Below, in pieces: positions 2,927 to 64,000 of a stretch of 64,000 bases of DNA. The stretch lies in contig JBARQV010000006.1 of NCBI GenBank assembly GCA_049643885.1, positions 19,234 to 83,233 on the forward strand. The letters run 5' to 3'. The position numbers and the translations under genes were made by a program. Source of the DNA: Candidatus Omnitrophota bacterium. GTDB taxonomy: Bacteria; Omnitrophota; Gorgyraeia; Tantalellales; Tantalellaceae. Below the pieces are notes generated by a model that saw only the letters and a program-made list of their open reading frames with translations, did not search any database and was not told the origin of the DNA. The first letter of the stretch is position 1. Each line of letters begins with the position of its first letter.

Positions 2927-3488
2927 TATAGTTATCAAAAGGTTTGTCGTCGGACCTTTAGGGACAAACTGTTATGTGGTCCATGGTAAGGATTCCCGCG
3001 AAGGCTTATTGATCGATCCCGGGGCGTGTGATCCCGGAATAGCCGCTTATATCCGGGATAATAAAATAAACGTGCAGTATATCTTGAACACTCACGGTCA
3101 CCCTGACCATGTAGCCGGGAACCTGGGATTCGGCTTTCCGATATTGATCCATGAGCTCGATGAGTCTTATATACGGCCCATAAAACCGGCATGGTTTTTA
3201 AGAGACGGAGATGTGATAACTTTAGGAGGGATCAAGCTGGAGATCATCCATACTCCGGGGCACACTCCCGGAAGCGTTTCGGTGAGATCGGGGGATATCC
3301 TCTTCAGCGGTGACACCCTTTTTCTTGAGGGGGTCGGGCGTACGGATCTCCCGGGCGGTGACCATGCGGCATTGCTGAAGTCTGTAAAAGAAAAGCTTAT
3401 GGTCCTGCCGGATTCTGTCAGGGTCTTCCCCGGGCACGGGCCGGAGACCACGATAGGACACGAGAAGGAAAATAATCCGTTCTTGTAG
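2907..3488 (+). CDS. MBL-fold metallo-hydrolase (glyoxalase II-like)
   Basis: HGHPDH metal-binding motif and GHTPG. Confidence 0.75.
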   Translation: MNSGLNDIVIKRFVVGPLGTNCYVVHGKDSREGLLIDPGACDPGIAAYIRDNKINVQYILNTHGHPDHVAGNLGFGFPILIHELDESYIRPIKPAWFLRDGDVITLGGIKLEIIHTPGHTPGSVSVRSGDILFSGDTLFLEGVGRTDLPGGDHAALLKSVKEKLMVLPDSVRVFPGHGPETTIGHEKENNPFL

Positions 3489-3752
3489 CACATGTTGGAT
3501 GTTGGATAATCGTAAGCATGAGAGTGAATCGAGGATCAAAAATAGGATACCAGGTTAATAGAGCATCAGGGGGCAGGATATCAGTTGATCAGTATATCAG
3601 GAAGCATTTCTGCCCGATCCCCTGATATCCAGAATCCTGCTTCCTGATAATCTGATTTCCCGATGACCTTTATTTCGAAATTGTATGTTTGGTACTGTTT
3701 GGGATTTGTGTATTGGAATTTCTTGCAATACAACCGGTGATAGAGGGCAGAA

Positions 3753-4637
3753 GTGGAAGAATACATCGACCAATTTATAGATTTCATGGAAGTTGAACGC
3801 GGGGTAAGCCCGAATACTATCGAATCTTACCGGAGGGATATCGAAAAGTTCGTTTCTTACCTCCGTTCCGTAAAAAAAGACCTGGCAAAAGCCGACCGCG
3901 AGGAGATCATGGATTTCATGATGAGCCTCAAAAGCAAAGGCCTTTCCGCGTCGACTATCGCCAGAAATCTTGCTTCGCTAAAAACATTCTGGAAGTTCCT
4001 TGTGATGGAGAGGATAGTGCCCGAGAACGTCGCTGCGGTCATCGAGACCCCAAAGACCTGGAAGACCATCCCTGATGTGCTGAACAAACAGGAAGTGGAG
4101 AAGCTTTTGAACGCTCCCCCGCGCAAGGGAACGACCGGTGTCAGGGACAGGGCCATACTTGAACTGATGTACGCGACGGGCTTGAGAGTCTCGGAAGTCA
4201 AGGACCTGAAAAAGGCGAATGTCAACCTTGAAGCGAGTTTTGTAAAATGTTCAGGGAAAGGGGGCAAGGAGCGTGTGGTGCCTCTGGGAAGCTTTGCTAA
4301 AGACGCGGTGGCAAAATACGTGAGCGGAGCCAGGCAGAAACTTTCGCGTAAGATCGAAGACGATCATCTGTTTTTATCTAAGCTGGGGAAATGTCTTTCC
4401 CGCCAGAGTATATGGAAGATGATCCGGAAGTACGCCAGACAGTCCGGCATAAAGAAGCATATTACACCCCACACCCTGAGGCATTCGTTCGCTACGCATC
4501 TATTGGAAGGCGGGGCGGAACTCCTCGGGATCCAGGAAATGCTAGGGCACGCTGATATATCGACGACGCAAATATACACGCATATAAATAAGGATAAGCT
4601 CAAGAAGGTGCATGAGAAGTACCACCCGAGAGCGTAG
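3753..4637 (+). CDS. xerD: tyrosine recombinase XerD (GTG start)
   Basis: N-terminal SAM-like domain. C-terminal R...HxxR...Y catalytic residues (HTLRHSFATHLLEGG...Y). 294 aa, the canonical Xer size. Confidence 0.8.
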   Translation: MEEYIDQFIDFMEVERGVSPNTIESYRRDIEKFVSYLRSVKKDLAKADREEIMDFMMSLKSKGLSASTIARNLASLKTFWKFLVMERIVPENVAAVIETPKTWKTIPDVLNKQEVEKLLNAPPRKGTTGVRDRAILELMYATGLRVSEVKDLKKANVNLEASFVKCSGKGGKERVVPLGSFAKDAVAKYVSGARQKLSRKIEDDHLFLSKLGKCLSRQSIWKMIRKYARQSGIKKHITPHTLRHSFATHLLEGGAELLGIQEMLGHADISTTQIYTHINKDKLKKVHEKYHPRA

Positions 4638-4780: not shown

Positions 4781-7465
4781 ATGGATTTGATCGTTACGCA
4801 CAAGAATGCCGATTTTGACGCGCTGAGCTCTCTGGTCGCGGCAAAAAAACTTTACCCCAAAGCCCGTCTTTTACTTCCGGGTTCCCAGGAAAGGGCGGTC
4901 CGGAAGTTCATGTCTCTTTTTAAAGATCAGTTAAAAATAGAGAATGAAAAAACATGCCGGATGGATGACATCACCCGGATGATAATCGTTGATAACCGCC
5001 ACAGATCCCGTATCGGGATAGTGGCCTCTCTTTTGGGCAAAAAGGGGATAAAAGTCCATATCTATGATCACCATCCCCGGACCAAGTATGATATAAAGGG
5101 AGACATAGACGTGTTTAAAGAGGTCGGGGCCACGGTCAGCATCCTCCTGGAAAAACTTATTAAAAAAGGCAAACTGTCTTTGACTCCGCTGGAAGCGACG
5201 CTGATGCTTCTCGGCATATACGAGGAGACGGGATATCTTACCTACCGGACTACTACCAAACTCGACATCGACATTGTAAGCAAACTTCTTGAGCAGGGGG
5301 CAAACCTGAACGCGGTGTCTTCTTACCTGAACCGTGAACTTTCTGCCAGTGAACTTTCCGCGCTTATAAAACTTTTGGAATCGATAGAGGCTATCGAGGT
5401 CCGCGGGGTAGAGGTAGCTTTTGCCGAGATGGACTCCAGTGATTTCGACGGGGAAACCGGTACCGTTGTCCATAAGCTGCAGGATGTGGAGAATTATCCC
5501 GTTCTCTTTGTGATGTTCAGGTCCGGGGAAAAGGTGAAGATACTGGCCAGGAGCCGGTTTGAGAGCATAGATGTCAACAAACTGCTCGGGCACCTGGGAG
5601 GCGCGGGCCATTCCAGCGCCGCGAGCGCTAGACTGGAAGGCAGGACGACGAAAGATATCCGCGAAGAACTTCTAACGAGGTTGGATAAGATCATCCGGCC
5701 CGAGGTCAAAGCCGGCGATATCATGTCGTTCCCGGTAAAGACGGTTATCCAGGAAGAAACGGTAAATGAAGTATTGGAAAAGTTGGTCCGTCTCGGGCAC
5801 AAGGGCGCTCCGGTCCTTGACGAAGACGGAAAGCTGGTCGGTGTCGTGACACAGGGGGACATTAAAAAGGCTCTCAGGCATAACATGGGGCATTCCCGCG
5901 TAAAGGGTTACATGGCCTCAAGAGTGGTGACCGTGGATCCCGGGACCCCGCTTTATGTCCTGGAGAAAATAATGCTGGAGGAGGACAAGGGACGTATACC
6001 GGTCATAGATAAAGACAATAAACTGGTGGGGATCATCACCCGGACGGATGTGCTCAAGAAAGTTTACAGTTCACTGTTCATGGGAAAGGTCCACAGGCAA
6101 AAAAGTATGTCCAATGTCGCCGCAAAGATGAGAGCATTGCTCCCCAAAAAACTATTGGAACTTTTAAATACCATCGGGAGTGAAGCCGACGCGAAGGGTA
6201 TCAGCATATTTCTTGTGGGCGGGTTCGTGAGGGATGTCTTGCTTGGCGTGAAAAATTACGATCTGGACATAGTAGTCGAGGGCGATGCCATGGAATTCGG
6301 GAGGATCCTGGGAGACAGGATAGGAGGCAGTCTTGTGGTCCACAAGAAGTTCGGGACCTCCACCCTGGTAAAAGACTGGCCGAAGTGGCTGGGGTCTTCC
6401 CTTCATCCGGATAACAAATTCAAGATAGACATAGCTACTGCCAGGAAGGAAGTATACGAGAGGCCGGCAGCTTTGCCGACGGTGCAATTCAGTTCCCTCA
6501 GGGAGGACCTGTACCGCAGGGATTTCACCATAAACGCCATGGCAGTCGGTATAAACAAGGATACCTTCGGCCTCTTTATCGACTTTTTCGGCGGGATGAA
6601 CGATCTGCAAAAAGGGACCATAAGAATACTGCATGACAGGAGTTTTATAGATGACCCGACACGCATCTTCAGGGCGGTAAGGTTCGAGCAGAGGTTCGGG
6701 TTCGCCATTGACAAGCATACAGAGTATCTTATCCAGCACGCGATAAGGCGCGAGATGTTCAAGCGGACGGAAAACCAGAGGATAAGAGATGAGCTTATTC
6801 TCATCCTGAAGGAGAAAAATCCAGAAAAAACCGTGTTCCGGATGAGGGAACTTCACGAACTCAGGTTCATACATCCTGACCTGGTCCTGCCGAGATCCAT
6901 GAAGAAGAGATTCGAGGAGATCAGTAAATGCGTCCAGTGGTATGATACCGCCGAGGACATAAGGCGAAGACGGCTCGATAAGTGGCTCATAAACTTTATG
7001 GCTATCCTGGACTCGCTTTCCGCCAGGCAGGTGGAAGAAGTGCTGAAAGGGTTCGTTTTCACCAGGAGCGAGACCATAAGGGTGATGTCTTACAAGGAAA
7101 AAGGAGACCGGATCATCCGCAAACTTTCTTCGAAGAATAAAATGGCCCCGAGCAGCATTTACAAGCTGCTGGAACCGCTTTCCCACGAGGCCACTCTTTG
7201 CATAATGGCCAAGGCCCGGTCAAGGGTCGCCCGCAGCCGCATAAGGAAATTTTTTACCGTCTATAACGGTATGCGTTTGAAGATCTCCGGAAGTTATATC
7301 ACGAAAGAAGGCATCCAGCCCGGGCCGCTGTACAAGAAGATACTTGACCAGATATTGTGCAGAAAACTTGACGAAAAGCTTCTGACCAAGCAGGATGAGG
7401 TAGAATACCTGAAAAAAGTGGTAAAAGACATCAAAAAGAAGAAAAGCAAGAAACGTAAAAAGTGA
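4781..7465 (+). CDS. multidomain DHH-DHHA1 / tandem CBS / poly(A) polymerase-CCA-adding nucleotidyltransferase fusion protein
   Basis: N-terminal DHH (DHH motif...GGGH), CBS pair, nucleotidyltransferase head (GGFVRD...DLD), HD-like C-terminus. Confidence 0.75.
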   Translation: MDLIVTHKNADFDALSSLVAAKKLYPKARLLLPGSQERAVRKFMSLFKDQLKIENEKTCRMDDITRMIIVDNRHRSRIGIVASLLGKKGIKVHIYDHHPRTKYDIKGDIDVFKEVGATVSILLEKLIKKGKLSLTPLEATLMLLGIYEETGYLTYRTTTKLDIDIVSKLLEQGANLNAVSSYLNRELSASELSALIKLLESIEAIEVRGVEVAFAEMDSSDFDGETGTVVHKLQDVENYPVLFVMFRSGEKVKILARSRFESIDVNKLLGHLGGAGHSSAASARLEGRTTKDIREELLTRLDKIIRPEVKAGDIMSFPVKTVIQEETVNEVLEKLVRLGHKGAPVLDEDGKLVGVVTQGDIKKALRHNMGHSRVKGYMASRVVTVDPGTPLYVLEKIMLEEDKGRIPVIDKDNKLVGIITRTDVLKKVYSSLFMGKVHRQKSMSNVAAKMRALLPKKLLELLNTIGSEADAKGISIFLVGGFVRDVLLGVKNYDLDIVVEGDAMEFGRILGDRIGGSLVVHKKFGTSTLVKDWPKWLGSSLHPDNKFKIDIATARKEVYERPAALPTVQFSSLREDLYRRDFTINAMAVGINKDTFGLFIDFFGGMNDLQKGTIRILHDRSFIDDPTRIFRAVRFEQRFGFAIDKHTEYLIQHAIRREMFKRTENQRIRDELILILKEKNPEKTVFRMRELHELRFIHPDLVLPRSMKKRFEEISKCVQWYDTAEDIRRRRLDKWLINFMAILDSLSARQVEEVLKGFVFTRSETIRVMSYKEKGDRIIRKLSSKNKMAPSSIYKLLEPLSHEATLCIMAKARSRVARSRIRKFFTVYNGMRLKISGSYITKEGIQPGPLYKKILDQILCRKLDEKLLTKQDEVEYLKKVVKDIKKKKSKKRKK

Positions 7466-38978: not shown

Positions 38979-39145
38979 TAAAAATCCTTGTTTAAGGGGA
39001 CATGATCTGTTTCCCGTAAAGATCCCAGGCTTAATTGCTTGGGATTTTTATTTCTGTGGCGTATAATATGGTACTATGCGGGGTATAAAAAACAGCTCTT
39101 GAAACGCGCCGAAGCGGTGCTCTCATGAAACGAGGTGTTACAGGC

Positions 39146-39505
39146 ATGAAAAAGCTTATACTTAAAACGTTCATTATTCTTTTTCTGGCCGTTTTTTCTA
39201 CGGCCTCGGCCCGGGGAGCAGGGGATATCGATCTTTCAAAGATCCCGGACGGTGTATATAAGGGTAAATGCAGATATTACGGGATGTTTACGTGCGAGGT
39301 GGAAGTAAGGGTGCGCGACCACCGGATAACCGATATCAAGGTATTTGAGGACAGGGAAAGTGAATATGTGGAACAAGCCAAGGGTGTTACTAAGAACGTG
39401 ATAAAGGAACAGTCTTTGAAAGTTGATACTGTCACGGGAGCTACAATTACCAGCCGGGCGATACTTAAGGCCATAGAGAACGCGTTGGCGAAAAAGGGTA
39501 AGTAA
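39146..39505 (+). CDS. secreted FMN-binding-domain protein
   Basis: Signal peptide, C-terminal ...VDTVTGATITSRAI motif of the FMN_bind domain (PF04205-like). Start trimmed to MKKLILK. Confidence 0.55.
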   Translation: MKKLILKTFIILFLAVFSTASARGAGDIDLSKIPDGVYKGKCRYYGMFTCEVEVRVRDHRITDIKVFEDRESEYVEQAKGVTKNVIKEQSLKVDTVTGATITSRAILKAIENALAKKGK

Positions 39506-39520
39506 AAAAAGGGGGATACG

Positions 39521-39640
39521 ATGAAAGTTAAAGAAGCAGGAGAAAATTACAGGTGCAACATTTGCGGCAATGAGGTCACCGTGACGAAAGCGGGAGGGGG
39601 AGAACTTGTCTGCTGCGGTCAGCCGATGGAAAAAATATGA
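39521..39640 (+). CDS. desulforedoxin (39 aa; below the cutoff of the ORF track)
   Basis: [12 protein letters not shown]...[12 protein letters not shown] matches the desulforedoxin CxxC...CC Fe(Cys)4 signature. RBS GGGGGA upstream. Its stop overlaps the next start (ATGA). Confidence 0.7.
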
Positions 39641-41124
39641 AACGGTTTCTCCCGGCAGTTCTGGTTTTATTTCTGCTATCCGTCTCGTGGAACGAAGCTT
39701 CCGGAAAAATGGCCGACCTAGCGGGCTCGTGGTACACGGCTGATCCCCGCGCTCTTGAGGCCGAGCTGAAAGATTACCTGGACAATGCCGATGTCCCCCC
39801 GGTCGAGGGGGATATCATCGGCCTTGTGGCTCCCCACGCGGGGTTCAGGTATTCCGGTCCCGTAGCGGCATATGCGTATAAAGCGGCCTTGAAGCAGGAT
39901 CCGGACCTGGTTGTAATTGTCGGTTTTTCCCACAGGAAATATTCCCCCTGGATATCGGTTTTTACCGACGAGAGTTTTGTCACGCCGCTCGGCCCCCTTG
40001 CCGTTGACCAGGAGCTATCCCGTAAGTTGATGGCTTCAAATGAAAAGATACAAAGCGTTCCCGGGTTGTTCGAGCAGGAAAATTCGGTAGAGATGGAGAT
40101 CCCGTTCGTGCAGGTCGCTTTCAAGAACGCCCGGGCGGTGCTGGTAGCTGTAGGCGAGCAGAGCCGGGAGAATTTCCATATCCTGGGAGACGCCCTGTAT
40201 GAAGTTCTGCGTGGTGAGAAGAATTTCATAATTATCGCGAGCACGGACATGTGCCATTATCTGCCTTATGAAGAGGCGAACACGCGGGACGCAATGACGA
40301 TCAAAGCTATAAAAAGCTTCGACCCGGATAATTTTTATTCCGTGAGCCTGAAAAACAGGCATGAACTGATGTGCGGTCCGGGGCCTGTCTGCGCGACGAT
40401 GCTCGCGTGTAAAAAACTGGGCGCGGACAAGGTCGAAATATTGAAATATGCCAATTCCGGCGATACTTCGGGAATGAAGGACCGGGTCGTCGGTTACCTC
40501 AGCGCGGCTTTTGTCAGGAGCGGAGGAAGAAAAGCCGGGGAGAAGCCGGCGGCAGTAAAGGAGGGCAGCGAGATGTTTACTCAGGAGCAAAAAGATAAGC
40601 TCTTGAAGATCGCAAGAGACACTATGCGTCATTATCTTGAAACCGGGAAACGCCTTGAAGTGGACGTCGAGGACGAAGCCCTTAAAGAAGATATGGGCGC
40701 GTTCGTGACCCTTCATGAGAAAGGGAAGTTAAGAGGATGTATCGGCCATATGGTCGGCACACAGCCTTTTTACCTTACTGTAAGGGATATGGCGATCGCG
40801 TCGGCCACCGAAGATCCCAGGTTTCCGCCGGTTACAGCGGGTGAGCTGGACGATATTGATATTGAGATATCCGCGCTTTCCCCGATGAGGAAAATAGACG
40901 ATTACAACGAGATCAATATCCCCGGGCAGGGTGTAATGGTCAGGATGGGTTTCCGCAGCGGAGTTTATCTTCCCCAGGTCGCGATAGAGACCGGTTGGGA
41001 CAGGGACCAGTTCATGAACAGCCTCTGCGCGCATAAGGCCGGTATCCCCATGGATGCATGGAAAACAGGGGCATGCGATATATACGTCTTCGACGCGGAA
41101 GTATTCGGGGAAAAAGAAAAGTAG
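39637..41124 (+). CDS. fused MEMO1-family (AmmeMemoRadiSam system protein B) / AMMECR1-domain (protein A) protein with a signal-peptide-like N-terminus
   Basis: MEMO1 motifs (GSWY..D, APHAG..YSG, TDM(C)HY) in aa 25-300. AMMECR1 motif (GAFVTL...LRGCIG) in aa 330-495. The N-terminal 22 aa are hydrophobic; an alternative start at the Met inside [11 protein letters not shown] is possible. Confidence 0.8.
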
Positions 41125-59530: not shown

Positions 59531-59869
59531 ATGAGAAAAGATCTGATCGCGGAAATACAGAAACAGATGAAGTCCCAGGAAATAGTCGACAAACTTTCCA
59601 GGACGTTCAGCGTGCTTGGCGACCCGACCAGGACCAAGCTGATATTCGCCTTGTCCAAGGAAGAGTTGTGCGTGGCTGAGTTGTCACAGATCCTTGGCAT
59701 GAGCCATTCGGCGATATCACACCAATTGAGGGCTCTTAAGGACCTGGACCTGGTAAGGTGCTGTAAAAAGGGAAGAAAGGCTTTTTATTCACTGAACGAT
59801 AAACATATAGAGAACCTTTTCAAGGAGGGGCTGAAGCACGTCCTTGAAAGAGTTGAAAAAGAGGTATAA
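59531..59869 (+). CDS. arsR: ArsR/SmtB-family metalloregulator
   Basis: LGDPTRTKLIFAL...ELCVAEL...SHSAISHQLRAL wHTH. Start trimmed to MRKDLIAE. Confidence 0.8.
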   Translation: MRKDLIAEIQKQMKSQEIVDKLSRTFSVLGDPTRTKLIFALSKEELCVAELSQILGMSHSAISHQLRALKDLDLVRCCKKGRKAFYSLNDKHIENLFKEGLKHVLERVEKEV

Positions 59870-59870
59870 A

Positions 59871-60101
59871 ATGGAAGAAATGGTCCTGACAAAATTAAAA
59901 CCGCACCAGACCGCTGTGGTCAAGGATATCACCGGCGGATACAATGCCGTCCAGCGTCTGGGCGCCATGGGTATAAGGCCGGGGAAGAAGATAACCATGA
60001 TAAGCGCTCATTTCTGGAGGGGGCCCGTTACTATTTTGATCGACAAGGCAAAGATAGCGATAGGCCACGGCATGGCTCAGAAGATCATGGTAGAGGTATA
60101 G
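59871..60101 (+). CDS. feoA: ferrous iron transport protein A
   Basis: SH3-like FeoA (LKPHQTAVVKDI...G.RPG). 76 aa. Confidence 0.75.
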   Translation: MEEMVLTKLKPHQTAVVKDITGGYNAVQRLGAMGIRPGKKITMISAHFWRGPVTILIDKAKIAIGHGMAQKIMVEV

Positions 60102-60102
60102 T

Positions 60103-61833
60103 ATGGCGAAGGAAGAGAGAGAAATTCTTCTCATGGGCAACCCAAATACGGGGAAGAGTGTGATATTCTCCAGGCTTACGGGAGCGAAGGTGACGATTTC
60201 CAATTATCCCGGCACCACCGTAGGCTTTACCCAGGGATACATGAAGCTGAAAGGGGAAGAAACCGGTATTGTCCTCGATGTCCCCGGAGTATATAATCTG
60301 GAACCCCTCTGCAAAGCTGACGAAGTCGCTACCGATATGTTGGAAAAAGGCGACATGCTTATAAATATTGTCGATGCCACAAATCTCGAAAGGAATCTAT
60401 ATCTTACACTGGAGCTTCGTGAAAGGGGCATTCCCATGGTCGTCGCGCTTAACATGTGGGACGAGACAAAACACCGTGGGGTGGAAATAGATGTTGAGAA
60501 ATTAGAGAAAGAACTCGGCGTGCCGGTTGTCCCTACGTGCGGCCTTACCGGTGTAGGTATAAAGGAGATGGTGGGGCGATTGCAGAAGGCCGGGAAACCT
60601 GGCTTCAAGCCCTTAAGCCGTGACCAGAAATGGGAAGAGATCGGAAGGATAGTCAGCGTAGCCCAGAAACTCCATCGCCACCATCATACCATCCTGCAGC
60701 GGCTCGAAGATATAAGCACCCGGCCGGCTACGGGGTTGCCTATCGCGATTTTGGTCATTTATCTGTCTTTTGTGATCATAAGGTTCATAGGCGAAGGGCT
60801 TACAGGATATGTTTTCAATCCCTTTTTTGAAAAGATATGGATGCCGCTCATGATGAAATTGAGCGCTCTTTTAGGCGGCGGAGGAGTCATCCATGATATC
60901 CTTATCGGTAAAATCGTGGAAGGAGGGGTAGATTTCGGCGAATCTTTCGGTATATTGACGACGGGGCTTTATGTCCCCTTCGCCGCGGTCCTCCCGTACA
61001 TTTTCAGTTTTTATCTTGTCCTGGGCCTGCTCGAGGACTTTGGTTATCTTCCGCGTCTGGCGACGCAGGTAGATAACCTCATGCACCGTCTGGGGCTTCA
61101 TGGTTATGCAATAATCCCTATGATACTCGGGCTTGGCTGCAATGTCCCCGGGGCTATGGCACTGAGGCTTCTGGAGAACAGAAGGGAAAAATTCATTGCT
61201 GCTACAATAATGGCGATAGCCGTTCCTTGCATGGCCCAGATAGCCATGATCGTGGGGATTGTAGGGCAAAGGGGCGGCGGTTACCTGGCAATAATCTTCG
61301 GGACGCTTTTGCTGCTGATCATTATTAAAGGGCTTCTTATGAATCTTTTCATGAAAGGTAAAAGTCCGGAGATATTATGGGAGATACCTCCGTACAGGAT
61401 GCCGCAGCCCATGGCGGTCATGAAAAAACTATGGATGAGAGTATTTGAATTTCTGAAAGATGCCGTTCCCTATGTTTTGCTCGGCATTTTGATCGTAAAT
61501 ATACTGTATTTGCTCAGGGTATTTGATTTCCTGTCCAATTTGTTTGCGCCTGTCCTTACCGGACTGTGGGGGCTGCCCAAAGAGACGATGTCGGCGCTTC
61601 TTATAGGTTTTCTCCGTAAGGATGTGGCCGTGGGCATGCTGGCGCCGCTTAACCTGTCTACAAAAGATCTGGTCGTTGCATGTACTATCCTGGCTATTTA
61701 TTTTCCATGCATGGCGACGTTCATGGTGATGGTCCGCGAGTTAGGGGCGAAAGACATGGCAAAGTCGGCAGTGATCATGATAGTAACGGCTTTGATCGTA
61801 GGGACGGCTATGAACTTTTTGTTGCCGTTTTAA
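60103..61833 (+). CDS. feoB: ferrous iron transport protein B
   Basis: N-terminal G-domain (GNPNTGKS, DVPG, NMWD), then the polytopic membrane domain. Confidence 0.85.
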   Translation: MAKEEREILLMGNPNTGKSVIFSRLTGAKVTISNYPGTTVGFTQGYMKLKGEETGIVLDVPGVYNLEPLCKADEVATDMLEKGDMLINIVDATNLERNLYLTLELRERGIPMVVALNMWDETKHRGVEIDVEKLEKELGVPVVPTCGLTGVGIKEMVGRLQKAGKPGFKPLSRDQKWEEIGRIVSVAQKLHRHHHTILQRLEDISTRPATGLPIAILVIYLSFVIIRFIGEGLTGYVFNPFFEKIWMPLMMKLSALLGGGGVIHDILIGKIVEGGVDFGESFGILTTGLYVPFAAVLPYIFSFYLVLGLLEDFGYLPRLATQVDNLMHRLGLHGYAIIPMILGLGCNVPGAMALRLLENRREKFIAATIMAIAVPCMAQIAMIVGIVGQRGGGYLAIIFGTLLLLIIIKGLLMNLFMKGKSPEILWEIPPYRMPQPMAVMKKLWMRVFEFLKDAVPYVLLGILIVNILYLLRVFDFLSNLFAPVLTGLWGLPKETMSALLIGFLRKDVAVGMLAPLNLSTKDLVVACTILAIYFPCMATFMVMVRELGAKDMAKSAVIMIVTALIVGTAMNFLLPF

Positions 61834-61844
61834 GAAGTAAAGAG

Positions 61845-61925
61845 TATAGTGCAGTATGTTCCCGTACAGGGAGGATCCACACCGGGCGGAGGGGCCCTGG
61901 TAGGGAATATACTGCACTGTATAGT
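61845..61925 (+). repeat. F3 repeat, full copy b: about 28-bp-stem hairpin (tatagtgcagtatgttcccgtacaggg...ccctggtagggaatatactgcactgtata)
   Basis: Read directly. Lies between the feoB stop and the radical SAM start. Shares the gtacaggg/ccctggtag core with the F2 termini. Confidence 0.65.
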
Positions 61926-61973
61926 TTACATTCGCGACAGGACCCGCCTCCGCAATACGATATACAAGGGTGC

Positions 61974-63152
61974 ATGATGGATGTTATCAAGAAACTCGAT
62001 AAGATCTGGCACGAGAAACTGACCCGGAAAGACTTCCTCAAAAAGTGTCTCGCCGCCGGGATAGGTATGGGAGTTTCTTTATACCTTTTCGATATGTTTT
62101 CCAGATACAGGGCGTATGCCGCCATCGGCGAGAAAAGAGGCATGCGCGAGGCTCTTTTCTACGAGAAGATGGGCGACGAAGCCGTGAAGTGCCTCTTGTG
62201 TCCGAACTACTGCGTGCTCTCGAACGGCCAGAGGGGGTTTTGCCGCGTCCGGGAACAGGTCGACGGTAAACTTTACAGTCTTGTGTATGAACTTGTCTGC
62301 GCCGTTCATGTCGATCCTATTGAAAAAAAGCCCATGTATCACATGCTGCCCGGCAGCAGGTCCTTTTCCATAGCCACAGCCGGTTGCAATTCGCGGTGTA
62401 AATACTGCCAGAATTGGACTATCTCCCAGAGACCCCCGGAGGAGACCATGAACAAACGGTTGAGCGTCCCGAATCTGGTGGAGAGCGCTTCTTCAAACGG
62501 CTGCCGTTCGATAGCCTACACTTATAACGAGCCGATCATCTTCTACGAGTATATGCTCGATGCCTCCAAGCTCGCCAAGGAAAAAGGAATATATAATGTC
62601 ATGGTTACCGGGGGCAAGATCAATCCCGATCCTATTAAAAGAATGTTGAGCTATGTGGATTCCGCCAATTTTGACCTTAAGGGTTTTGACAAAAAATACC
62701 TGAGAGAGGTCTGCGCCCAGGACCTTGATAACATACTCCAGTCATTGACGCTGATGAAACAGGGGGGCATGTGGGTCGAAATAACCAACCTGATCGTCCC
62801 CACGCTGAACGATAAGATGGATGATATCAGGCAGATGGTGAAGTGGATAAAGAGAGAGCTCGGCCCGGACGTGCCGCTGCACTTTTCCAGATTCTGGCCC
62901 CAGTATAAATTGCGGTCGCTTTATCCTACGCCTACCGAGACGCTTAAGCGGGCAAGGGACATCGCTCTTGAAGAGGGGCTGCATTATGTGTACATAGGGA
63001 ACGTCCCGGAAATCGGGACGGGCGATACTGTATGCCCCAGGTGCAAGAACACAGTTATAAAAAGGATCGGGTACAGTGTCCTGGAAAATCATGTCTCGTC
63101 AGACGGGATATGCGGATTTTGCGGAAATAAAATAGCCGGTATTTGGAAATAA
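61974..63152 (+). CDS. AmmeMemoRadiSam-system radical SAM enzyme (PflA-like) with Tat/signal-like N-terminus
   Basis: Radical SAM motif CNSRCKYC plus upstream Cys cluster CLLCPNYC. N-terminus TRKDFLKKCLAAGIGMGVSLYLF...AYA. The ORF-track start at 61680 overlaps feoB and was trimmed to the first ATG after the F3b hairpin. Confidence 0.8.
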   Translation: MMDVIKKLDKIWHEKLTRKDFLKKCLAAGIGMGVSLYLFDMFSRYRAYAAIGEKRGMREALFYEKMGDEAVKCLLCPNYCVLSNGQRGFCRVREQVDGKLYSLVYELVCAVHVDPIEKKPMYHMLPGSRSFSIATAGCNSRCKYCQNWTISQRPPEETMNKRLSVPNLVESASSNGCRSIAYTYNEPIIFYEYMLDASKLAKEKGIYNVMVTGGKINPDPIKRMLSYVDSANFDLKGFDKKYLREVCAQDLDNILQSLTLMKQGGMWVEITNLIVPTLNDKMDDIRQMVKWIKRELGPDVPLHFSRFWPQYKLRSLYPTPTETLKRARDIALEEGLHYVYIGNVPEIGTGDTVCPRCKNTVIKRIGYSVLENHVSSDGICGFCGNKIAGIWK

Positions 63153-63153
63153 T

Positions 63154-64000
63154 GAATTTCAGAAAAACCGCGACTTTTTCAATGATCCTCATGGGTGTCA
63201 CCGCCATGGCTTCCCAGATCGTCTTCATGCGGGAGTTCCTGGTGGTGTTTTACGGTAACGAGATATCCATCGGGATAATCCTCGCGAGCTGGCTCGTGTG
63301 GGGGGCTTTCGGTAGCTGGTTTCTCGGGCGTTTTTCGGACCGTGTTACCGCGAAGGTCAGGCTTTTCTCCCTTTGCCAGCTAAGTCTGGCCTTTATCCTT
63401 CCGGCGACACTTTTTGCCATCCGGAGCTCCAAGTCGGTCATGGACATAGCCACGGGAGAGATCGTCGGTTATTACCCCATGGCCCTGGCGACATTTGTCA
63501 TACTTTCCCTGTCCTGCATGGTGATGGGTTTCATGTTCAGCCTCGGCTGCCGCGTTTACAAAGGCGTTACCGGTATCCCCGCGGAACAAGTGGCACGGGT
63601 CTATGTCCTGGAGGCAGTGGGAGCTTTGACCGGCGGTTTTCTCGTAAGCTATTTTCTTGTGCGGTATATGGTCCCGTTCGGGATAATTTTTTCATTATCT
63701 TTCCTTAACATCCTGGGCGCCCTTGCCATGCAGGTGCATTCCGAGCCGCACAGGGCAAAGCCGGTGCTTTTCGGGATAACCGCTGCTGTTCTTCTTTTGG
63801 GGCTGGCCGCATTATCAGCCGGGGGAGTAAGCAAGGTCAGGGCGGCCTCCCTGGACCGCCTCTGGGCCGGCTATGATGTCCTTGAGTCAAAAGATTCGTT
63901 GTACGGCAATATCACCGTTACCCGCAGTGAAGACCAGCGTTCATTTTACGACAGCGGTCTGCATCTCTATACGGTTCCTGATAAGTTGTCGGCGGAGGAA
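63154..64000 (+). CDS. membrane-anchored spermidine-synthase-like aminopropyltransferase; 3' end outside the window
   Basis: Multi-TM N-terminus, then ...KDSLYGNITVT...SFYDSGLHLYTVPD, resembling the spermidine synthase N-terminal tetramerisation/beta region. Open to the window edge. Confidence 0.5.

Follow-up and report, generated by a model that had tools for sequence, protein, structure and literature searches.

Can a radical S-adenosylmethionine (SAM) enzyme work outside the cytoplasm? The question is raised by a stretch of 64,000 nucleotides from a Candidatus Omnitrophota bacterium (assembly GCA_049643885.1, contig JBARQV010000006.1, positions 19,234 to 83,233; the whole stretch is called the window here), which encodes the radical SAM enzyme of the AmmeMemoRadiSam system and, 21 kb away, a fusion of its partners Memo (AmmeMemoSam_B) and AMMECR1 (AmmeMemoSam_A). 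To our knowledge, enzymes of this type are regarded as confined strictly to the cytoplasm, since their chemistry depends on SAM, on a low-potential reductant, and on Fe-S assembly. The first-pass annotation of the window had proposed that the system acts outside the cytoplasm or is tethered to the membrane. This proposal gains strong support from the clade-wide conservation of the signal on the radical SAM enzyme, the export signals of the partner proteins, the adjacency of tatAC, and a series of domain fusions, the localization itself being what we infer from them. On these grounds, we consider it probable (about 0.6) that the AmmeMemoRadiSam system of the window is an extracytoplasmic variant, with both the radical SAM enzyme and the fusion outside the cytoplasm. 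The features on which the argument rests are the following.

61974 to 63152, plus strand: AmmeMemoRadiSam radical SAM enzyme (TIGR04337), 392 amino acids from 61974 or 391 from 61977 (profile matches, Cys alignment, AlphaFold2 [AF2] model).
61974 to 62120, plus strand: signal peptide of the twin-arginine translocation (Tat) type, residues 1 to 49 of the radical SAM enzyme (n/h/c anatomy, TIGR01409, conservation, AF2 model).
39637 to 41124, plus strand: Memo-AMMECR1 fusion, 495 amino acids (TIGR04336, TIGR04335, PF01875, PF01871).
39637 to 39705, plus strand: Sec-type (signal peptidase I) signal peptide of the fusion, 23 residues followed by Lys (hydropathy and homologue conservation).

The identity of the radical SAM enzyme is clear. 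In a profile search, the open reading frame (ORF) at 61974 to 63152 scored 371.6 bits against TIGR04337, for which the curated cutoff is 220, and it also matched PF04055. An alignment of 33 sequences, spanning 53 to 80% identity, showed as invariant the radical SAM cluster motif CX3CX2C (C138, C142, and C145) and two further groups of cysteines, C73/C76/C80/C90 and C354/C357/C380/C383. The TIGR04337 match starts at residue 62, leaving about 60 residues N-terminal of the family core, and the AF2 model (pLDDT, 84.5), whose closest solved fold is that of PFL-AE, presents a detached helix (residues 18 to 46), a low-confidence hinge (40 to 47), and a core beginning at about residue 58. The ORF has two neighboring ATG codons, at 61974 and 61977, preceded by a Shine-Dalgarno-like AAGGG run that ends at 61970; the spacing is better for the second, where the identical database protein (P0001, 391 amino acids) also begins. 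A longer ORF from 61680 overlaps feoB and was rejected as the radical SAM gene.

The N-terminal extension displays the anatomy of a Tat signal, and its sequence is exactly as the first-pass annotation had quoted it. The n-region motif T17-R18-K19-D20-F21-L22-K23 (62022 to 62042) is followed by a moderately hydrophobic h-region (C25 to F39, 62046 to 62090) and by a basic c-region (D40 to A49, with R44 and R46) that ends in A47-Y48-A49 (62112 to 62120). A basic c-region is a feature of Tat signals that discourages use of the Sec route. Among the 120 best relatives of the enzyme (53 to 100% identity), 108 are full length, and 102 of these carry the motif [ST]R[RK]xF[LI] followed by an h-region, with RR in 75 and RK in 27; an AxA-like site comes after the h-region in 99 of the 102. 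The consensus in the relatives is [ST]-R-R-x-F-[LI]-K, and in the 33-sequence alignment R18 and F21 are invariant, with Arg at position 19 in at least 90% of the sequences. The relatives have a moderately hydrophobic h-region (median KD12, 1.67) and a basic c-region (median of 2 Lys or Arg residues), features more usual in Tat than in Sec signals. Furthermore, several homologues pass the TIGR01409 cutoff (16.7 bits), i.e., the 80% identical P0004, with RR (24.8 bits), an Altiarchaeota protein from locus L014 (27.0 bits), and that of locus L064 (17.2 bits), and the N termini of the relatives give weak matches to the Tat regions of hydrogenase small subunits and of formate dehydrogenase. The first-pass annotation had named as an outcome against its own proposal the lack of the extension in other TIGR04337 members; the extension is kept, and because the motif is conserved at the protein level across relatives, we regard it as real and not as an artifact of the start codon.

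The fusion partner carries an export signal as well. Its Memo domain (residues 27 to 292) scores 250 bits against TIGR04336 and its AMMECR1 domain (residues 321 to 490) scores 169 bits against TIGR04335, both above the curated cutoffs, and PF01875 and PF01871 are matched. By heuristic rules, its N terminus is that of a Sec/signal peptidase I substrate, with the n-region M-K-R, a hydrophobic stretch, and A-S-G before Lys. The Sec-like signal that had been noticed in the window turned out to be general, as 111 of the 112 full-length fusion homologues have an h-region with a KD10 of at least 2.0 (median, 3.15), and it, too, does not stem from a wrongly called start codon. In these 112 sequences, position -3 is Ala in 77, position -1 is Ala in 67 (Ala or Val being typical), and position +1 is Lys in 110. 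The alignment of the Memo domain to human MEMO1 (3bcz) shows that the equivalents of H49, H81, and C244 are retained, the residues that in the human protein coordinate iron or copper (PMC11081632). Thus, both the A (AMMECR1) and B (Memo) partners co-occur with the radical SAM gene in the window without adjoining it; the gap between the two genes, estimated at first at about 21 kb, measures 20,850 nucleotides.

How widespread is the signal-bearing form? In a genome scan that took one genome per species, relatives at 42 to 68% identity turned up in 80 loci from more than 20 phyla. Among the phyla and groups represented are Omnitrophota, Zixibacteria, Acidobacteriota, Thermodesulfobacteriota, Aminicenantes, Planctomycetota/Brocadiaceae, Bacteroidota (including the cultured Mangrovibacterium marinum), Verrucomicrobiota, Kiritimatiellae, Lentisphaerae, KSB1, Caldithrix, and one metagenome-assembled genome (MAG) of Altiarchaeota. 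The N terminus is of the RR Tat type in 44 of the 80 loci, features RK or KR in 4, is Tat-like by a looser rule in 3, and is hydrophobic without RR (a Sec-like signal or a transmembrane [TM] anchor) in 24, while 5 loci show none of these. Three of the last five (L028, L037, and L082) have the hydrophobic part encoded a short way upstream in a different frame and therefore are no counterexamples. In these three unrelated MAGs, a separate upstream ORF (at about 1800 to 2090, 2200 to 2460, and 5140 to 5470, respectively) reaches an EA-YY motif and ends shortly before the Met of the radical SAM gene; this arrangement could have arisen by a recurrent frameshift or by splitting of the gene, or it could be an error of assembly.

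When 1.8 billion cluster representatives were searched, 1,490 clusters matched at an E value of ≤1e-30. Among the nearest 150 clusters, about half are signal-less proteins of the classical 330 to 350 amino acids, about 30 are of the RR type, and about 15 have hydrophobic N termini or extra N-terminal domains. In core-sequence space, the nearest neighbor of a signal-bearing member is itself signal bearing in 90% of the cases, compared to 28% in shuffles (maximum, 56%). Moreover, the signal-bearing group keeps all conserved cysteines (each retained in 85 to 100% of the members) and 47 of the 54 family-conserved columns. Since it clusters in core-sequence space and keeps these residues, the signal-bearing form is a coherent, nondegenerate clade. 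As for other radical SAM genes at these loci, tandem TIGR04337 paralogues occur in L009 (8739 to 11143), where a signal-less copy lies directly upstream of the copy with the Tat signal, and in L075 (9902 to 12187). In L013, an unrelated radical SAM-like ORF on the minus strand (3457 to 4515), with the Tat-like N terminus MGITRRDFIKGSLLLGSSMLLPPPSDA, adjoins the TIGR04337 gene, and Tat signals on radical SAM proteins may thus extend beyond this family.

The genomic context points in the same direction. In the Altiarchaeota MAG (L014, 8887 to 12608), a contiguous series consists of tatA, tatC, tatA, the gene for a Tat-signal radical SAM enzyme, and a Memo-AMMECR1 gene with a lipobox; in an Omnitrophota MAG (L010), a distance of 2.3 kb separates tatA and tatC from the radical SAM gene, and L077 likewise has both in the vicinity. 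The tat genes of the three loci, all of the RR class, were confirmed by PF02416 and PF00902. A bacterial-style lipobox in an archaeal bin is odd, and L014 could be misbinned. Of the 27 fusions encoded at the same locus as a radical SAM gene, about 24 have a Sec signal or a lipobox.

A further line of evidence comes from proteins in which the radical SAM enzyme is fused to other domains, all of which score above the TIGR04337 cutoff. P0249 and P0252 consist of one N-terminal TM segment, an FMN_bind domain with the D-x-x-S-G-A-T motif, and the radical SAM domain, with no TM segment between them. In P0244 and P0247, FMN_bind is followed by a NapH-like Fer4_5 domain (PF12801) and then by the radical SAM domain; P0255 has DsbD_2, FMN_bind, and Fer4_5 ahead of it, and in P0243 and P0258 DsbD_2 is fused to it. 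FMN_bind with NapH-like or DsbD modules has been described as an extracytosolic electron-transfer device (Meheust et al. 2021, PMC8238504). Two more proteins, P0246 and P0241, show a signal peptide and a CBM_11 domain or a beta-propeller before the radical SAM domain. Such fusions are typical of extracytoplasmic proteins. Finally, P0245 is a single polypeptide made up of an anchor, the radical SAM domain, Memo, and AMMECR1. As no TM segment separates its radical SAM and Memo domains, these two are expected to share one compartment; its one weak hydropathy segment (residues 506 to 524) lies inside the soluble Memo domain. In P0243, all loop Lys and Arg residues fall in odd loops, which predicts that the N terminus of DsbD_2 is outside and therefore that the radical SAM domain is outside too.

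What would the enzyme meet there? The most conserved neighbor, which the first-pass annotation had not mentioned, is the gene directly downstream.

63152 to 64000, plus strand: polytopic SpeE-like membrane protein, N-terminal 282 of 761 amino acids, running off the window (full gene in L089).

Its ATG overlaps the TAA stop of the radical SAM gene (TAATG) at 63152. The full gene (L089, 13050 to 15335) encodes 7 TM segments, a soluble domain of about 318 amino acids, and 7 more TM segments, and it scores 99 bits against PF01564 and 74.9 bits (cutoff, 40) against NF037959 ("fused MFS/spermidine synthase"). The identification of the product as a spermidine synthase was rejected, as the SpeE equivalog cutoffs are missed (NF002956, 177 versus 472; TIGR00417, 94 versus 249.55) and as the acidic residue of GGG(D/E)G and the first Asp of D-x-x-D-P are lost: in the alignment, the domain has GGGVGG and N-L-G-D-P where PDB entries 7xif and 1uir have GGGEG and D-L-T-D-P. 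In enzymes of the spermidine synthase family, decarboxylated SAM may be less strictly preferred once this acidic residue is gone. By the bias of Lys and Arg across loops, a crude rule, 29 of 34 homologues are predicted to have the soluble domain on the outside.

When all ORFs lying up to 6 kb from the radical SAM gene were clustered for the 80 loci, this polytopic membrane protein with a Spermine_synth domain ranked as the commonest neighbor (40 loci, across phyla), followed by Memo-AMMECR1 (26), DsbD_2 (24), DUF362, in a Tat-signal form or a form with Fer4 domains (17), and DUF6599 (6). We suggest that the SpeE-like membrane protein is a hitherto unremarked fourth partner of the system. The neighbors sort by signal class. 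The RR class (44 loci) has SpeE-like genes in 23 loci, DUF362 in 17, DsbD_2 in 5, and Memo-AMMECR1 in 9, and the hydrophobic class without RR (24 loci) has SpeE-like genes in 9, DUF362 in none, DsbD_2 in 17, and Memo-AMMECR1 in 13. The pairing of DUF362 with RR and of DsbD_2 with its lack suggests two alternative architectures for the supply of electrons. Tat-signal DUF362 proteins and DUF6599 proteins accompany RR-class radical SAM genes in L016, L022, L029, L033, L040, L080, and other loci.

In the window itself, the candidate source of electrons lies upstream of the fusion.

39125 to 39505, plus strand: small secreted FMN_bind protein, 126 amino acids, with a signal peptide and the flavinylation motif D-T-V-T-G-A-T (PF04205, 52.6 bits).
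39521 to 39640, plus strand: desulforedoxin-type Fe(Cys)4 protein of 39 amino acids, with no signal (TIGR00319, 52 bits; cutoff, 36).

The FMN_bind protein combines the PF04205 match with the N-terminal signal MKKLILKTFIILFLAVFSTASA and the motif D-x-x-[ST]-G-A-[ST]. The desulforedoxin-type ORF, which sits between it and the fusion, has a stop codon that overlaps the fusion start, and in L088 such an ORF is called as a gene with PF06397. The slot upstream of the fusion varies among lineages: it holds FMN_bind and desulforedoxin in the window, FMN_bind alone, 4 nucleotides upstream, in L006/L007, and other genes or nothing in four more lineages. The connection that had been drawn between the secreted FMN-binding neighbor and the system thus holds by way of the FMN_bind-radical SAM fusion proteins and not by synteny.

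Taken together, these elements allow a route to be proposed. The radical SAM enzyme would be synthesized with a 49-residue Tat signal peptide and would receive its Fe-S clusters, and possibly also SAM, in the cytoplasm; TatABC would then export the folded enzyme, with cleavage probably after A47-Y-A49. The unfolded Memo-AMMECR1 protein, with the Fe/Cu site of MEMO1 kept, would leave through Sec and be cleaved after A21-S-G23, and the two would meet at the outer face of the inner membrane. Their partner there would be the SpeE-like protein with its 14 TM segments, whose gene follows that of the radical SAM enzyme in translational coupling and whose Rossmann-type domain is predicted to face the periplasm. 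Reductive cleavage of SAM would be fed by extracytosolic carriers and not by flavodoxin, here presumably by the secreted, flavinylatable FMN_bind protein, and in other lineages by DsbD_2, NapH-like modules, or Tat-signal DUF362 proteins. As for the substrate, a molecule of the envelope or membrane is more probable than a nucleotide.

Several points weigh against an extracytoplasmic location. The window enzyme has RK, without consecutive arginines, and scores 16.0 bits against TIGR01409, 0.7 below the cutoff; its moderately hydrophobic h-region, basic c-region, and AxA site are those of a Tat signal. In about a quarter of the related loci, the RR signal is replaced by a Sec-like one or by a simple TM anchor. 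We know of no SAM and low-potential reductant available in the periplasm, nor of any precedent for the export of an Fe-S enzyme through Sec. The single-anchor fusions P0249, P0252, and P0245 have more Lys and Arg after the TM segment than before it, which leaves their orientation ambiguous, and this positive-inside analysis was kept out of the supporting evidence. The idea that FMN_bind is an operon partner conserved with the fusion was rejected, since the two adjoin in only two of the six lineages checked. Neither tatA nor tatC was found in the window, where a tatA motif search and a scan for other ORFs with a Tat motif were both empty; likewise, apbE was not found among the window ORFs scanned (ten further ORFs, all housekeeping), nor was a membrane conduit found in the window. 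In addition, all topology calls follow hydropathy and charge rules made for this analysis.

Some of these difficulties would vanish if the enzyme stayed at the cytoplasmic face, with a vestigial or repurposed Tat-like leader that serves as an inner-face tether or for chaperone binding, and only Memo-AMMECR1 were exported. This main rival, which we consider unlikely, solves the supply of SAM, reductant, and Fe-S clusters; it agrees with the RK pair and the low TIGR01409 score of the window enzyme and with the classes lacking RR, which cannot use Tat, and the single-anchor fusions could, by their charge bias, be oriented N-out/C-in. Such a leader on a protein that stays inside has a precedent in NarG, a cytoplasmic enzyme whose remnant Tat motif binds a chaperone. 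The NarG remnant, however, has lost both consensus and cleavage site, whereas here the full signal architecture is conserved and the partner proteins carry export signals. A retained leader hardly explains why the n/h/c architecture and AxA site are kept in more than 20 phyla, with a true RR in most, why tatAC adjoins the gene in L014, or why the obligate partners bear unambiguous Sec or lipoprotein signals. The single chain of P0245, the predicted outside location of the radical SAM domain in P0243, and the CBM_11 and beta-propeller fusions likewise speak for the outer side.

The signal might instead remain uncleaved, as an N-in/C-out TM helix of the kind found in Rieske proteins that tethers the enzyme to the outer face; this would be a variant of the extracytoplasmic explanation rather than its opposite. 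Many relatives do have a hydrophobic segment of 19 to 22 residues without AxA (e.g., L012, L051, L056, and L074), the fusion proteins keep the radical SAM domain joined to membrane modules, and the SpeE-like neighbor is an integral membrane protein. In the clade of the window, however, the h-region of about 15 residues with several Gly is short for a stable TM helix and is followed by an AxA-like site in 99 of 102 sequences, and we hold a permanent anchor there to be improbable. An annotation artifact, with the true start at a downstream Met (the M57 or M61 region) and the signal a translated spacer, had been named in the first-pass annotation as a way in which its proposal could fail, and the profile start at residue 62, the Met at 57, and the 330 to 350 amino acids of canonical members would agree with it, but it is very improbable given an extension conserved at 53 to 80% identity with R18 and F21 invariant, the Shine-Dalgarno-like AAGGG ahead of 61974/61977, the start of P0001 at 61977, and the same extension encoded 28 nucleotides after feoB in other genomes.

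Within the extracytoplasmic explanation, it is possible to hypothesize more. A clade-wide, self-contained module for periplasmic radical SAM chemistry could be built from a radical SAM enzyme that is Tat-exported or inserted into the membrane, from Memo-AMMECR1, and from a 14-TM protein whose SAM-type Rossmann domain faces outward. In this module, flavinylated FMN_bind, NapH-like, or DsbD_2 conduits would replace flavodoxin, and the SpeE-like protein would deliver SAM or present a membrane-embedded substrate. We regard this extension as tentative and rather doubtful. In the lineages that combine a Sec-like signal with DsbD_2, it would additionally need Fe-S insertion outside the cytoplasm; the pairing of the Sec-like radical SAM class with DsbD_2 fits no current model of Fe-S protein export.

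The comparison with known systems shows what is shared and what is distinctive. Canonical AmmeMemoRadiSam (TIGR04335, TIGR04336, and TIGR04337, with AMMECR1 and MEMO1 as human homologues) has the same families, cysteines, and MEMO1 ligands. Its radical SAM enzyme has 330 to 350 amino acids, is signal-less, and is presumed cytoplasmic, whereas here every component bears an export signal, Memo and AMMECR1 are fused, and the radical SAM gene lies 21 kb off in a feoAB operon with a conserved SpeE-like membrane partner. The likeness to PFL-AE is structural (Foldseek E value, 1.7e-12; target TM-score, 0.79 to 0.81; CX3CX2C shared) at an identity of only 17 to 19%; different from our enzyme, PFL-AE is cytoplasmic and reduced by flavodoxin, and it lacks the N-terminal 4-Cys motif, the C-terminal CxxC...CxxC, and the signal peptide. 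Tat-exported Fe-S proteins, such as hydrogenase small subunits and ferredoxins of the DmsB/NrfC type, share the cytoplasmic loading of cofactors and the folded twin-arginine export, but they are electron-transfer subunits, and none is a radical SAM enzyme in need of a nucleotide cosubstrate. The flavinylation systems (PMC8238504) comprise the same modules, i.e., secreted FMN_bind with [ST]GA[ST], NapH-like PF12801, and the DsbD type, which here are fused or adjacent to the radical SAM enzyme, while a radical SAM, Memo, or AMMECR1 terminal module does not figure in that study.

The main texts of the two flavinylation papers contain no Memo, AMMECR1, or radical SAM, and the matches in the supplement are unrelated PFL-AE-like genes. 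In the literature searched, no description of an exported AmmeMemoRadiSam system was found; Burroughs et al. 2019 (JBC) lay outside its coverage, and a prior mention there is possible. The exported form is a variant of a known, uncharacterized system, and automated Tat annotation would flag many of its members. If the extracytoplasmic explanation is true, a broad radical SAM clade built for export would overturn the assumption of a strictly cytoplasmic location, and how SAM and electrons reach the enzyme would become the question. The search for the function of MEMO1/AMMECR1 homologues would narrow, as the substrate in these bacteria should be an envelope, membrane, or extracellular molecule, and flavinylation-based extracytosolic electron transfer would gain a new candidate terminal enzyme.

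The remaining features concern the surroundings of the two genes.

59531 to 61833, plus strand, directly upstream of the radical SAM gene: ArsR/SmtB regulator (59531 to 59869), FeoA (59871 to 60101), and FeoB (60103 to 61833).
61844 to 61923, plus strand: perfect hairpin with a 20-bp stem in the 140-nucleotide feoB-radical SAM spacer (fold energy, -61.7 kcal/mol; z = -5.3).

The order arsR-feoA-feoB-radical SAM-speE-like recurs in L001/L002 (76% identity, 28-nucleotide gap), and feoB-radical SAM recurs in L008 (68% identity); together with the kept MEMO1 metal ligands, the linkage to feoAB hints at iron-related or iron-linked redox chemistry. That the partners are separated, as the first-pass annotation had stated, is correct, but the ArsR-FeoA-FeoB module to which it ascribed the split is only the immediate upstream neighbor, and about 20 mostly housekeeping genes (rsmE, mtaB, cvpA, dnaG, rpoD, and others) lie between the fusion and the radical SAM gene. 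The fusion itself heads a conserved housekeeping run with rsmE, mtaB, cvpA, an unnamed gene, dnaG, and rpoD.

The hairpin has no Rfam match, no U-tract terminator, and no other copy in the window, and it is absent from L001, where the gap is 28 nucleotides; it was set aside as unrelated to the question of the signal. It may be an inserted palindromic element or a signal for mRNA processing or stability. The rest of the scanned window is housekeeping (DHH phosphoesterase, truB, ribF, uppP/BacA, and rodZ), and a tyrosine recombinase (Phage_integrase, XerC/D-like) is encoded at 3753 to 4637.

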